From: Candidatus Nanoarchaeia archaeon | GTDB lineage: Archaea; Nanobdellota; Nanobdellia; Woesearchaeales; JANQNC01 | Length of the DNA stretch: 32,000 nt | Direction of reading: 5' to 3' | Assembly (NCBI GenBank): GCA_028279745.1 | Contig: JANQNC010000001.1 | Coordinates: forward strand, 780,001 to 812,000 | In this document: one piece after another, positions 16,442-25,613 of the stretch | Layout: the number at the start of each line of letters is the position of its first letter | Position numbering within the stretch: the first letter of the stretch is position 1 | The notes under the pieces: model-generated | Databases searched by the model: none | What the model was told of the DNA's origin: nothing | Seen by the model: only the letters and a program-made list of their open reading frames with translations | Made by a program: the position numbers and the translations under genes

Positions 16442-18190
16442 TTACTTAAGCCATTCCTGCTTTATCGGGGTCCATATCTTCTGCACATAGAATCCAATTT
16501 CCCATCCGTTATTTTTATCTGCAGGTTCATCTTTAAATTGTTTTTCAGTAGAAGACTGTTTTGCATAGAATCCTATTTGAGTAAACCATTTAGGCAAATA
16601 TATTTCTGCACCAATTGTGTTAGATCTTGAAATTATTTTTGAAGCTTCAATGGTAGATAGTAACGTATCTTCATAGCTAGAATTTGTACTTGAGTATTCA
16701 ATTGTATATGAAGGTGCAAACCTGAAATGTTTGGTGTTAATTAGTGTGTGTTTTATTTTTATCTTATACTCTTCAAGAACATGTTTTTGGTCCCAAGGTT
16801 GACTTGTTTCTGCTTTGTAGTTAAGGGATAGTTCGGTTTTAGGGATTGGTGAGTACAGATACCAGTTTCTTCTATGTTTATCAATTCCTAAAGTTTGGTC
16901 TTTTTGTTCTTCTAGTATGCTTACAAACCTTCTGAACAGTTCACTTTTTATCAATAAGTTTCTTGCCCAGTTGTTAAATGGCACAAGTAGTTTGTACCCC
17001 AGCTCAAAACTCTTGACATCTTCATGCGCGATTTTAGGATCAAATCCTGTGACTAAAGTGTCAAGGGTATCTCCTATCTCTTCGTGGAAAAAATTGTCTG
17101 TTTTGAAACTAATGTTATGGATGAAGTTCTTACCAAACATAACATTTCCTGCATGGATTTGAGATCTTGTTTCTATATCTGATTTTGCTTTAGGTGGCGC
17201 AAAGTTATCATTTTCAAAATCAGTTTTTCCTTCTCCATTCATGTTTGAATAGAGATAATGCATTTGTTTAAGTCCATCTTTAAGAGTTAAGTTGGCCACT
17301 TTTCTGTTTAGCTCTTTTTCTGTACTGAAATTATTATCAAATAGAGTTCCCTCAGGATTTGTGTTATCTACGAAAAGATATGTTTTTAGATATGTTTCAG
17401 TAAATTTAAATTTCTCAGCAGATAGGTTTAAGTTTAATTCAATAATTTTTGTTAAATTAAGATTTAGTGAATATTTTTCTTCGTCTATGTCGATTATGCC
17501 ATTTCCCGGTTTGTCCCACCACTTATCTGCTGTGTCAACTATGCTATATTCAGGGATTATCCTTATCTGATTCTCGGTCTTGAATGTAGAATCGTGATAG
17601 TTTATTCTTCTATTCTCTTTTTCAAACATAAACTCTAATATTTTGAATAAATTCTGTTTGAAGAAGAAACTTTTGTTTGTTTCTGTTTGGTTGCTGAAGT
17701 TATTCTCTTTCTGTTTTAATAGTAAATCAATAGTGTAAGTTTCATAATCATAAAATAGAGAAGTGTCAACTTTAGTAGAGTCTTCACTTTCGCTTTTTTT
17801 CTCACCCCAGTTAAAACCTAAGCTGTTCCTGAATAAAGGGTGGGTTAAAATTGAGTGTTCTGCACTGATCAAATTTGCACTATTCTTGTTTTGTTCATCT
17901 TTTTCCCAGTTGGTTCTTTCTAAAAATAATTTTCCATATCCAAGCAAGTGTTTTTTATCTAAGTTAAGATAACCTTCGAATTTAGCCTCTTCATTTTTGT
18001 TGAAGTTAAGGAAAATATCATTTTTATCTAGCTGTCCGTGTACGAGTAAACTTTTGGTTGTAACAGAATCATTTGAAGTGTAGCTAGGAGAAATTTCCGC
18101 CTGTCTGAAACTGGGCTCAAAACCTAATGCTGTATAAGCTAACATGCCTAATCCAATCAGAGTGTTCCTAACTATTTTTAGAGGTTTCAT
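16442..18190 (-). CDS. signal-peptide protein (582 aa), beta-strand-rich, possible beta-barrel
   Basis: ATGA overlap with the upstream gene, with a GGAGGAT SD at 18196-18202. The signal peptide is MKPLKIVRNTLIGLGMLAYTALG. Many short amphipathic alternating segments are present, for example TIGAEIYL, TQIGFYAKQ and GWEIGFYVQKIW near the C-terminus. No family recognised. Confidence 0.6.
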   Translation of the reverse strand: MKPLKIVRNTLIGLGMLAYTALGFEPSFRQAEISPSYTSNDSVTTKSLLVHGQLDKNDIFLNFNKNEEAKFEGYLNLDKKHLLGYGKLFLERTNWEKDEQNKNSANLISAEHSILTHPLFRNSLGFNWGEKKSESEDSTKVDTSLFYDYETYTIDLLLKQKENNFSNQTETNKSFFFKQNLFKILEFMFEKENRRINYHDSTFKTENQIRIIPEYSIVDTADKWWDKPGNGIIDIDEEKYSLNLNLTKIIELNLNLSAEKFKFTETYLKTYLFVDNTNPEGTLFDNNFSTEKELNRKVANLTLKDGLKQMHYLYSNMNGEGKTDFENDNFAPPKAKSDIETRSQIHAGNVMFGKNFIHNISFKTDNFFHEEIGDTLDTLVTGFDPKIAHEDVKSFELGYKLLVPFNNWARNLLIKSELFRRFVSILEEQKDQTLGIDKHRRNWYLYSPIPKTELSLNYKAETSQPWDQKHVLEEYKIKIKHTLINTKHFRFAPSYTIEYSSTNSSYEDTLLSTIEASKIISRSNTIGAEIYLPKWFTQIGFYAKQSSTEKQFKDEPADKNNGWEIGFYVQKIWTPIKQEWLK

Positions 18191-24323: not shown

Positions 24324-25613
24324 TCAACTCTCTTTCTTTCGATACTCCAAAGCAGGCACTTTTTCACTAAACCCTTTACACTCAACAGGATCTATTTTTG
24401 AGAATTTATCAAGATACTTGGGGGACGCACCTTCTTTCTCAACCTCATCTTTATATTTTTCCATCAATCCTTCACTGATTAGGATACAGTTTGCGTTTGC
24501 ATTTGAACAAAGCCTTGAAGCTAAGTTAACACTCTTACCCATAACTGTATATTCTGATTTTCCGGGCGAGTCTGATAAGAATAATTCGTCGGTAGGTTGT
24601 CCTAAGAAACCTACGGCGGGGGTCCCGTAAGATATTCCTATGCTCATGTCTGGAAGAACCTTACCTTCAGCCTTTAGTTCCTCTTGATATTTGTTGTGGG
24701 CATCTATAATTTCAAATGCGGAATCAATTATTCTGTAAGCTAGACTTGTCTTGTTTAAAGGAGGGCCAGAGAAGGCCATTATACAGTCTCCTGGTTTTTT
24801 GTCAATAACAACTCCTTTTTCAGTTAATATGCTTTGAAGACGGTTATAATCTTCGTTTAAAATGTTAAAAACATCTTCGGGGTTTTGATCTTCACTCCAA
24901 CCAGTAAAATTTATCAGATCTCCAAACAAGATGCCTGCTTTTTCTTTTCTAGCTTTTCTACTGTAACCATCTGATTGAACATATTCTGCAATAAGCGGAC
25001 CCGAAATGCTGTTCAATTTTTTTCTAAGTTCTTCTTCAGGTTTTTCTTTAACTATGAGTCTGTAAGCTTCTTCAACACCCTTGAAAACTTCAAATTCAAC
25101 AGTGTATTTTGTTATGGGGTGCGAGTAGATTCTAGCAACTCTTTGTTCTCCATCATCTATTCTATTGCATAAATTATCTAGAATATTTTTAACATCTGGT
25201 TTATCCTGTAGATACCCTGCAATTGCAAAATTCATATTTTTCTTAGCATCGAGCTGCAGAAGTTTTCTTGTTGATTGGTCTCTACCTTCAAAGTCAAAGT
25301 TTAACCTTCTATCTTTTGTGATTGTTATTCTATCTTCAGCTTTGTTGCTGTCAGATTTAGAAAGTTGATATTTTAACCCATCGATTGTATCTGTATTCCA
25401 AGAGTTATAATCGTAGTAAACACCTAGTCCAAAGCCTAAACTTGCGGCTATAAAATCCCAAGCGTTAAATCTGCCATTCGTTAAAGGATCTAATGCAAAG
25501 TTTAATCCTGCACCTAGAAGTGAAATTAATTTTCCTTTATTGTGGCCTAAGGCTTCTGAAATCTTTTTCCCCATACTGTGTTCCCCCGCAACCACCAATA
25601 CGTTACTACTCAT
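24324..25613 (-). CDS. class III nucleotidyl (adenylate/guanylate) cyclase with an unknown N-terminal domain of about 220 aa
   Basis: Catalytic-domain landmarks are present: metal Asp in GILFGDLINFTGW and KKPGDCIMAFSG, and Asn/Arg in TVMGKSVNLASRL. First gene of the minus-strand operon. Palindromic TTTATAAA TATA elements lie upstream (25627-25634 and 25649-25656). Confidence 0.8.
   Translation of the reverse strand: MSSNVLVVAGEHSMGKKISEALGHNKGKLISLLGAGLNFALDPLTNGRFNAWDFIAASLGFGLGVYYDYNSWNTDTIDGLKYQLSKSDSNKAEDRITITKDRRLNFDFEGRDQSTRKLLQLDAKKNMNFAIAGYLQDKPDVKNILDNLCNRIDDGEQRVARIYSHPITKYTVEFEVFKGVEEAYRLIVKEKPEEELRKKLNSISGPLIAEYVQSDGYSRKARKEKAGILFGDLINFTGWSEDQNPEDVFNILNEDYNRLQSILTEKGVVIDKKPGDCIMAFSGPPLNKTSLAYRIIDSAFEIIDAHNKYQEELKAEGKVLPDMSIGISYGTPAVGFLGQPTDELFLSDSPGKSEYTVMGKSVNLASRLCSNANANCILISEGLMEKYKDEVEKEGASPKYLDKFSKIDPVECKGFSEKVPALEYRKKES

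Follow-up and report, generated by a model that had tools for sequence, protein, structure and literature searches.

We analysed a 32,000-nt stretch of the genome of Candidatus Nanoarchaeia archaeon (assembly GCA_028279745.1, contig JANQNC010000001.1, positions 780,001 to 812,000 of the forward strand). This stretch is called the window below, and coordinates are counted from its first letter. The minus strand of the window carries a gene cluster that is predicted to encode a class III nucleotidyl cyclase, a transmembrane Hanks kinase and several exported or surface proteins, and we describe the cluster here as a candidate envelope-sensing module. A scan for open reading frames (ORFs) shows five consecutive minus-strand ORFs running from 25613 to 16442, and the genes p188 and p864 lie downstream of them. 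The tight packing that an earlier note on this DNA had reported for the five genes is borne out by the ORF coordinates. The genes and the putative promoter region are as follows.

25624-25658, minus strand: putative archaeal promoter region with two TATA-like TTTATAAATA elements, shared with the divergent leucyl-tRNA synthetase gene (leuS)
24324-25613, minus strand: cyclase, 429 aa
21013-24318, minus strand: kinase, 1101 aa from the ATG (or 21013-24327, 1104 aa)
20016-21053, minus strand: HD-GYP-like protein, 345 aa (340 aa from the ATG at 21038)
18187-20019, minus strand: p610, 610 aa
16442-18190, minus strand: p582, 582 aa
15817-16374, minus strand: p188
13155-15749, minus strand: p864

Gene junctions and promoter elements

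Each junction described in the earlier note was found on the sequence. Five nucleotides separate the cyclase stop codon (TGA, 24326-24324) from the kinase ATG at 24318, and the alternative kinase start, a TTG at 24327, would overlap this stop codon. The kinase stop codon (TAA, 21015-21013) is overlapped by the start of the HD-GYP-like gene, by 41 nt if translation begins at the ATG at 21053 and by 26 nt if it begins at the ATG at 21038. The latter ATG has AGGAG 7 nt upstream and was also picked by an independent gene caller. By the ORF coordinates, ATGA overlaps join the HD-GYP-like gene to p610 (20016-20019) and p610 to p582 (18187-18190).

The motif TTTAWAWA occurs at only five sites on the minus strand of 13000-25800: two precede the cyclase, one falls within the kinase (21948), and p188 (16427) and p864 (15779) each have one in front. 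Upstream of the five genes there are only the two sites before the cyclase, and in this sense the earlier statement that obvious TATA elements precede the first gene alone holds for the five-gene unit. The two sites belong to TTTATAAATA elements (25656-25647 and 25634-25625) that lie between the cyclase and the divergent leuS and are putative promoter elements. Since TATA-like elements are found upstream of only the first of the five genes and the internal genes carry Shine-Dalgarno-like purine runs, the motif pattern fits a single transcript for the five genes. The genes p188 and p864, each with its own TATA-like element (p188 also with a GAGGTGA ribosome-binding site), may have additional promoters of their own. 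A scan for sigma-70 promoters and intrinsic terminators gave hits at chance level and is irrelevant for an archaeal host.

The whole spacer between the cyclase and leuS is 42 nt long (25614-25655). The TTTATAAA core of TTTATAAATA is palindromic and could serve both directions. The start of the cyclase may depend on which TTTATAAATA copy is used: it would be the ATG at 25613 (429 aa, as in NCBI) or an ATG 39 nt downstream (416 aa, as in Logan).

Conservation of the operon

Homologues of p610 led us to three more lineages, L002, L003/L005 and L006. They are uncultured, and one of them is named Woesearchaeota; together with the window they make a sample of four lineages. L002 (Candidatus Woesearchaeota archaeon, GCA_019322415.1) carries six cluster genes in the same order as the window, namely cyclase, kinase, p610, p582, p188 and p864. 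Its proteins compare with those of the window as follows.

832-2100: cyclase homologue (L2_422), 422 aa, 34% identity, full length
Kinase homologue: 1085 aa, 27% identity over the full length, ectodomain included
p610 homologue: 564 aa, 50% identity
p582 homologue: 546 aa, 29% identity
8785-9417: p188 homologue (L2_210), 210 aa, 28% identity
p864 homologue (L2_774): 774 aa, 41% identity

This block is flanked by a Na/Ca exchanger and, at its other end, by hydrogenase genes, and these flanks differ entirely from those in the window. Six-gene synteny with different flanks therefore suggests that the module travels as a unit. The L003/L005 contigs (from ENA and JGI, 99% identical to each other) contain the 3' end of the cyclase, the kinase, p610 and p582, and L006, which comes from another Logan run, contains the kinase, p610 and p582. 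All three of these lineages have an ATGA overlap between the kinase and p610 and another between p610 and p582, and L005 has one at the cyclase/kinase junction as well. The orthologues of p610 are 50%, 48% and 33% identical to the window protein, and syntenic homologues of p582 are found at 29-34% identity in L002, L003/L005 and L006. A metagenome scan gave one locus, from the same population as L003.

Because both gene order and ATGA overlaps are kept across lineages, the comparison argues that the operon is real and is selected as a unit. Its tightest core, as judged from these loci, is kinase-p610-p582 with the cyclase upstream. The synteny of p188 and p864 was seen at L002, the only other locus that extends that far. 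Thus, the cyclase, the kinase, p610 and p582 recur together elsewhere, as the earlier note had expected of its five genes, and the HD-GYP-like gene is never with them. The claim that precisely these five genes form the functional unit did not survive the comparison: one of them is absent elsewhere, and the L002 block runs on into p188 and p864.

The cluster sits between a block of archaeal-type genes (S13-S4-S11-RpoD-L18e-L13-S9) and leuS; the window also holds a TBP-like ORF and RpoN. The same arrangement was seen in an independent Logan assembly (L001), and NCBI lists the window proteins on a contig of 1.30 Mb. Since archaeal housekeeping genes flank the cluster on both sides on the 1.3-Mb contig, its genes, judged by this setting, are not binning contaminants. 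The window is AT-rich (GC ~0.35), and its composition is uniform throughout.

The cyclase

The first gene matches the Guanylate_cyc profile PF00211 over residues 221-388 (E-value 3.9e-18, 66.1 bits against a cut-off of 21.9), and the catalytic domain occupies residues ~220-395. The closest relative in the PDB is CyaB of P. aeruginosa, a class IIIb enzyme (3r5g, 5.5e-14). The metal-binding Asp pair, the substrate-specifying Lys and Thr and the transition-state Asn and Arg of the window protein all align to CyaB. The motifs FGDLINFT and PGDCIMAF correspond to FSDIRGFT and VGDCVMVF of CyaB, the Lys lies in IDKKPGD and the Thr in EYTVMG, and VNLASRL is present as well. The window cyclase differs from CyaB by an insertion of ~10 residues before the Thr, by an unrelated N-terminal domain and by its archaeal host. 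A Lys/Thr pair is the pattern of class IIIb adenylyl cyclases. Because the catalytic residues and this pair are in place, the sequence is most likely to be that of an active enzyme that makes cyclic AMP (cAMP). The earlier prediction of an active class III cyclase thus agrees with both the profile score and the complete set of predicted catalytic residues. The first ~205 residues, which show two short conserved hydrophobic segments, have no match in Pfam.

The kinase and its ectodomain

The kinase domain matches Pkinase PF00069 (1.4e-23, 84 bits against a cut-off of 31.7). The motifs FAVK85, HRDIKPAN228, DFG248 and SPQ274 are present and are kept in the orthologues, and the kinase looks catalytically competent by these motifs. 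The predicted architecture consists of a cytoplasmic kinase domain, a transmembrane (TM) helix, a helical (coiled) stalk, a GH88-like barrel, a CBM9-like C-terminal domain and a tail. The parts after the kinase domain that could be placed are as follows.

23059-23121, minus strand: single TM helix (residues ~400-420, Kyte-Doolittle scan)
21724-22656, minus strand: GH88-like (alpha/alpha)6-barrel sensor domain (residues ~555-865)
21109-21723, minus strand: possible CBM9-like beta-rich C-terminal domain (a weak call from sub-threshold CBM9_2 matches in orthologues)

The position of the TM helix is kept in the L002 and L005 orthologues, and orthologues show 27% identity to the window kinase from end to end, ectodomain included. 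The best NCBIfam matches of the kinase are PknB_PASTA_kin (1.3e-36) and PknD, and its kinase domain is also matched by TIGR03903, "TOMM system kinase/cyclase fusion protein". The topology of a cytoplasmic Hanks kinase, a single TM helix and an extracellular ligand-binding domain is that of PknB/Stk1, with its PASTA repeats, and of PknD, with its beta-propeller. However, in the window protein the sensor would be a coiled stalk with a GH88-fold barrel and a CBM9-like domain, the host is an archaeon and not a bacterium, and the gene is translationally coupled to a cyclase and two secreted proteins.

The GH88-like barrel was recognized by homology to UGL, the unsaturated glucuronyl hydrolase of family GH88. 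A phmmer search of the PDB with the single kinase sequence gave UGL 2ahf/1vd5 at 9e-13, and a profile of three orthologues gave the same entries at 2e-14, covering 26-363 of the 377 residues. Pfam PF07470 (GH88) does not match the kinase. The GH88-like call is sound at the level of fold and homology, and the earlier note's description of a Hanks kinase with a GH88-like ectodomain agrees with the Pkinase match and the barrel-wide homology. The domain was compared with UGL of Bacillus sp. GL1 (1vd5), whose numbering is used, and with the streptococcal enzymes (2zzr/3anj). The position of D149 stays acidic (D in the window, E in both orthologues). In contrast, D88 is replaced by K in the window and by Q in both orthologues, in a part of the alignment that is of low confidence, and R221, H193 and Q211 are not conserved. 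The key residues of the uronate hydrolase are therefore lost, and the unsaturated uronate that the earlier note had proposed as the ligand is unsupported. Its tether to a kinase makes it most likely that the domain is a binding module, derived from a hydrolase and with its pocket remodelled, and not an enzyme.

The C-terminal ~200 residues of the kinase gave no Pfam match at E<=10 for the window sequence. In the L002 and L005 orthologues, the same region of the CBM9_2 profile is matched below threshold (E 0.0015 and 0.008; 18.8 and 16.4 bits against a cut-off of 25), and the best hit of a PDB profile search was 4jpq, which is not significant (E 0.34). The CBM9-like identity claimed by the earlier note is thus plausible but unproven: it draws on the two orthologues and finds no match in the window sequence itself. 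The window kinase extends by ~30 residues (…VSQKDLKNTFMNREINEETQDGYFFKQQ; 21013-21110) past the PG[KR]L[IV]L[KR] end of its orthologues. This extension sits exactly at the start of the HD-GYP-like gene and looks like an insertion scar or a read-through created by an insertion.

The secreted proteins p610 and p582

Signal-peptide-like N-termini had been noted for p610 and p582, and both proteins do have them. In a Pfam scan, p610 gives only a weak thioredoxin match. Using HMMER with a profile of three p610 sequences, we found 505 representative proteins at E<=1e-3 and 299 at E<=1e-10. The relatives, P0014-P0162 among them, share positions ~150-545 of p610, a C-terminal domain of ~400 residues without a Pfam model, and many of them carry N-terminal Thioredoxin_7 and TPR domains; one has CBM9_1. 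This is a large, unnamed and apparently mostly bacterial family.

An AlphaFold2 model of p610, built from a multiple sequence alignment of 91 sequences, has a pLDDT of 85 and a pTM of 0.87. In a Foldseek search of the PDB, the model matched gingipain R (RgpB, C25 family; 1cvr/4ief) with an E-value of 1.6e-7, a probability of 1.0 and ~415 aligned columns. The N-terminus of the model matched thioredoxins. The model superposes on RgpB over ~415 of ~430 residues at ~10% identity; the additional thioredoxin domain keeps the TM-scores modest (0.35 by query, 0.48 by target). The thioredoxin motif is DPDC, not CxxC, and no such fusion is found in gingipain R. At the positions of the catalytic His and Cys, mapped by secondary structure, p610 has S-R-G after strand 442-446 and N-P-H-S after strand 495-499, and the family has N-S/T-x-G and H-S-x-S. 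By column frequencies, the canonical His-Gly/Cys dyad of clan CD is missing throughout the family, and other motifs are conserved instead: N-S/T-x-G, H-S-x-S, E-P and G-D-P. According to the model, p610 consists of a signal peptide, a thioredoxin fold and a gingipain (C25)-like fold that lacks the canonical dyad. The protein would be a pseudo-enzyme, or else an enzyme whose active site is a different one. The family matches TIGR03790 only below threshold, and PrsT was also hit below threshold.

The gene of one bacterial relative of p610, P0016 (764 aa; L007, 1244-6456), stands directly after genes of exosortases EpsH/EpsI and before a Bac_transf priming sugar transferase. This neighbourhood hints at a link to exosortase/PEP-CTERM surface systems. 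The gene of another relative, P0029 (L008-L010), lies among sugar-metabolism genes.

For p582, neither Pfam, NCBIfam nor the PDB (a profile search included) gave a match, and a word-index search among 5.8 billion proteins returned only p582 itself. Together with its syntenic homologues, p582 is by these searches a cluster-specific orphan family.

The degenerate HD-GYP-like protein

The HD-GYP-like protein matches HD_5 (3.4e-18, 66.4 bits against a cut-off of 27.2). The alignment to PmGH (4mcw, 4.6e-10) shows that the first His is replaced by Asn and the HD dyad by Cys-Asn, and that the Tyr of GYP has dropped out (DGSG-PRG). In comparison with 4mcw and 9rbz, the protein keeps HHE, the preceding His and a downstream Asp. 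Unlike PmGH, the protein is stand-alone, archaeal and ends in a C-terminal region of ~140 aa with no significant Pfam or PDB match. The earlier note had described it as lacking the HD dyad, and the alignment confirms this. The domain is almost certainly non-hydrolytic by these residues, and the protein is not to be classed as an active HD-GYP. The entries 9rbz/9rc0 ("HD domain/sensory box protein"), which are recently solved and are among its closest solved relatives, are themselves degenerate, with SQ for HD and the HHE lost. They may be useful as a structural point of comparison for HD-GYP domains that are inactive.

A tblastn search found no homologue of this gene in the L002, L005 and L006 clusters. 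Because it is missing from all three orthologous clusters, the gene is a lineage-specific element wedged into the kinase/p610 junction, accessory rather than core, and cannot encode an obligatory nucleotide receptor. Four lineages are too few to tell a gain here from a loss elsewhere: the identities of p610 put L006 outermost, and those of the kinase put the window outermost.

The downstream proteins p188 and p864

The p188 protein is small and Cys-rich, with a signal peptide and a canonical-looking EF-hand-like loop (DTDGDGCTDIQE). Its C-terminus consists of VPEI, a TM helix and a basic tail, and that of its L002 homologue L2_210 of VPEF, a TM helix and KKKK. This VPE[IF]-helix-basic tail arrangement resembles PEP-CTERM/PEF-CTERM sorting signals; the PEF/PGF-CTERM models of NCBIfam match neither p188 nor its orthologue.

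The p864 protein matches Peptidase_C13 (legumain/caspase-like, clan CD) with 25.2 bits against a cut-off of 22.8, and caspase_w_EACC1 of NCBIfam at 2.5e-7. The IGHG and DACNSG motifs are kept in L2_774, the His/Cys dyad is intact, and the Cys motif aligns to the EACESG motif of asparaginyl endopeptidases. The protein also contains repeated Ig-like domains (Big_13) and a C-terminal beta-sandwich. The latter matches Por_Secre_tail (1.2e-11) and TIGR04183, the type A sorting domain of the type IX secretion system (T9SS), with 43.7 bits against a cut-off of 23. Thus, p864 is an archaeal protein that bears a T9SS sorting domain, and the Woesearchaeal orthologue retains this domain more weakly. To our knowledge, the T9SS is not known in archaea, and no T9SS gene was found within the window. 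With p188 and p864 included, the locus is dominated by proteins that are predicted to be extracytoplasmic.

Interpretation of the locus

We consider it reasonably probable that the cluster is a conserved envelope-sensing receptor-kinase/adenylyl-cyclase module of Woesearchaeota-like (DPANN) archaea, with extracellular partner proteins. The kinase ectodomain would bind a cue outside the cell, a glycan or a glycoprotein, and would probably do so as part of a stoichiometric complex with p610 and p582; a fixed stoichiometry of the three is suggested by their conserved translational coupling. Binding of the cue would switch the cytoplasmic kinase, which would phosphorylate the co-translated cyclase or its N-terminal domain and in this way set the cAMP output. 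In effect, this would be a receptor cyclase split into two polypeptides. The anchored p188 and p864, a legumain-like protease with Ig repeats, are likely to be the surface machinery that is co-regulated or serviced. The HD-GYP-like protein, present in this lineage only, would most likely act as a non-catalytic adaptor or a nucleotide-binding accessory.

Receptor guanylyl cyclases, which appear among the PDB matches of the cyclase, and the TIGR03903 fusions provide a precedent for kinase-cyclase coupling. The receptor guanylyl cyclases (for example, the ANP receptor) and these fusions combine an extracellular sensor, a kinase or kinase-like domain and a class III cyclase in one unit. Here, in contrast, kinase and cyclase are separate polypeptides, the cyclase has an N-terminal domain of its own that lacks any match, the kinase looks competent and is not a pseudokinase, and coupling is suggested by the operon structure alone. 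Each domain belongs to or is derived from a known family, and the logic of a receptor kinase with a class III cyclase is already known. What is new is the combination of genes, the GH88-derived sensor on a Hanks kinase, the dyad-less gingipain-fold protein and orphan partners, and the DPANN setting. In the literature, we found nothing specific on a kinase/cyclase or surface module of Woesearchaeota.

Several points weigh against the sensing module. The link between the kinase and the cyclase consists of adjacency and translational coupling, and the whole case is built from sequence. No cAMP receptor was found in the window. The ligand pocket of the GH88-like domain is not interpretable. The p582 protein has no assignable fold, and so its complex with the ectodomain is conjecture. 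In L002, the substrate-specifying Lys of the cyclase is replaced by Arg, and PF00211 is matched only marginally (22.1 bits, with the cut-off at 21.9); because of this, nucleotide specificity or activity may vary by lineage, and the product may not always be cAMP. With their own TATA-like elements, p188 and p864 may be independent of the five-gene transcript. The conservation sample is small, and no relative came up when GTDB genomes were scanned twice with p610 patterns.

There are two other explanations of the locus, each of which we regard as improbable. The locus could serve maturation or sorting of surface proteins. The p610 protein would then be a processing or transpeptidase-like enzyme with a non-canonical site (the invariant His502-Ser503 and Glu533) that acts on p864, which bears a C-terminal sorting domain, and/or on the anchored p188, by analogy with the C25-family T9SS sortase PorU or with exosortase systems, and the kinase and cyclase would only regulate. 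That gingipain R is the best structural match of p610 agrees with this, and so does the strong conservation of polar residues in its family at the active-site end of the strands. The Por_Secre_tail domain of p864 above the NCBIfam threshold, the PEP-CTERM-like tails of p188 and L2_210, the position of P0016 between exosortase and sugar transferase genes, and the sub-threshold TIGR03790 and PrsT matches point the same way. However, the clan CD dyad is absent family-wide, the window shows neither a T9SS nor an archaeosortase gene, and the PEF/PGF-CTERM models fail on p188. Moreover, the exosortase link is a single locus, with another relative in an unrelated sugar-metabolism context, and p188 and p864 are linked to p610 less tightly than the kinase is. 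The locus could instead serve degradation and uptake of extracellular polymers, in the manner of a polysaccharide-utilisation locus with a hybrid sensor, of which it would be the archaeal counterpart. In that case, the GH88-like domain and the proteases would digest glycoconjugates of a host or the environment, and the kinase and cyclase would report substrate availability. This is consistent with the barrel-wide homology to GH88, the acidic residue at the general acid/base position D149, the CBM9-like hints, the intact dyad of p864 and the carbohydrate contexts of bacterial p610 relatives. It fits poorly with the loss of D88, R221, H193 and Q211 and with a cluster that has no transporter, lyase or sugar-catabolic gene. 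A hydrolase joined to a kinase via a TM helix is also a better fit for a sensor than for a nutritional enzyme.

The model of the earlier note, in which a five-gene unit senses an unsaturated uronate and the HD-GYP-like protein is the receptor of the cyclase product, is less probable still. The HD-GYP-like gene is indeed translationally coupled on both sides, and inactive HD-GYP domains can bind cyclic dinucleotides (preprint 10.1101/2021.11.05.467447). Yet the gene is missing from each orthologous cluster (3/3), the uronate-binding residues are gone, and the receptor role was pure inference. In addition, HD-GYP domains are known to act on cyclic di-GMP (c-di-GMP) and cyclic GMP-AMP (cGAMP) and not on cAMP, the product to be expected of a class IIIb-type cyclase. 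Least credible of all is an anti-virus defence system, Pycsar-like or kinase-based, in which the cyclase would make a cyclic nucleotide on infection and other genes would be effectors. PADLOC does match PycC to the cyclase (3.5e-9) and PD-T4-6/mad6 to the kinase. These matches are generic, and that of the cyclase is weaker than its matches to Pfam (3.9e-18) and CyaB (5.5e-14); the other five cluster proteins have no PADLOC match. The cluster contains no cNMP-binding, TIR or pore effector, four of its seven proteins appear extracellular or surface-exposed, and the class IIIb Lys/Thr pair points to ATP. With only generic domain matches and no effector-type protein, we rejected a defence system, Pycsar included, in line with the earlier remark that the genes match no known system of this kind.

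A bolder version of the sensing module is that the locus is a DPANN-specific apparatus for recognition of a host or partner surface; we think this rather unlikely. The glycosidase-derived receptor kinase would, with p610 and p582, detect an envelope glycan of the host, cAMP would be made, and the legumain-like adhesin/protease would respond; in one lineage the signal would also run through a genuinely archaeal, catalytically dead HD-GYP domain. If true, episymbiotic archaea would have their first defined contact-sensing signalling pathway, and class III cyclases and cAMP would gain a functional role in the signalling of Archaea. Little is understood of how archaea signal with cyclic nucleotides, and the locus has an intact class III cyclase and an HD-GYP-like gene in an archaeal operon. 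Class III enzymes are reported to be very few among archaeal adenylyl cyclases (PMC8646023), and HD-GYP domains have been regarded as all but missing from archaea: archaeal HD-GYP ORFs come nearly all from metagenome-assembled genomes, where they are possible contaminants (10.1101/2021.11.05.467447). The locus is a clean counter-example to both views, though its HD-GYP is degenerate. A receptor kinase with secreted partners would also offer a testable entry to environment sensing in genome-reduced, probably host-dependent archaea. The p610 family, with at least 505 representative clusters, deserves its own description.

Other features of the window

Away from the cluster, a stand-alone response-regulator receiver gene (121 aa; 4467-4832) adjoins a gene for a small MscS-type TM-helix protein (4858-5550); no histidine kinase is visible in the window. 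The AT skew is very strongly positive (up to 0.59) at 9000-13000, over the ribosomal-protein block. This zone coincides with the long Lys/Glu-rich tails of the S4- and S11-like proteins (for example, 9708-10400 and 10403-10957).

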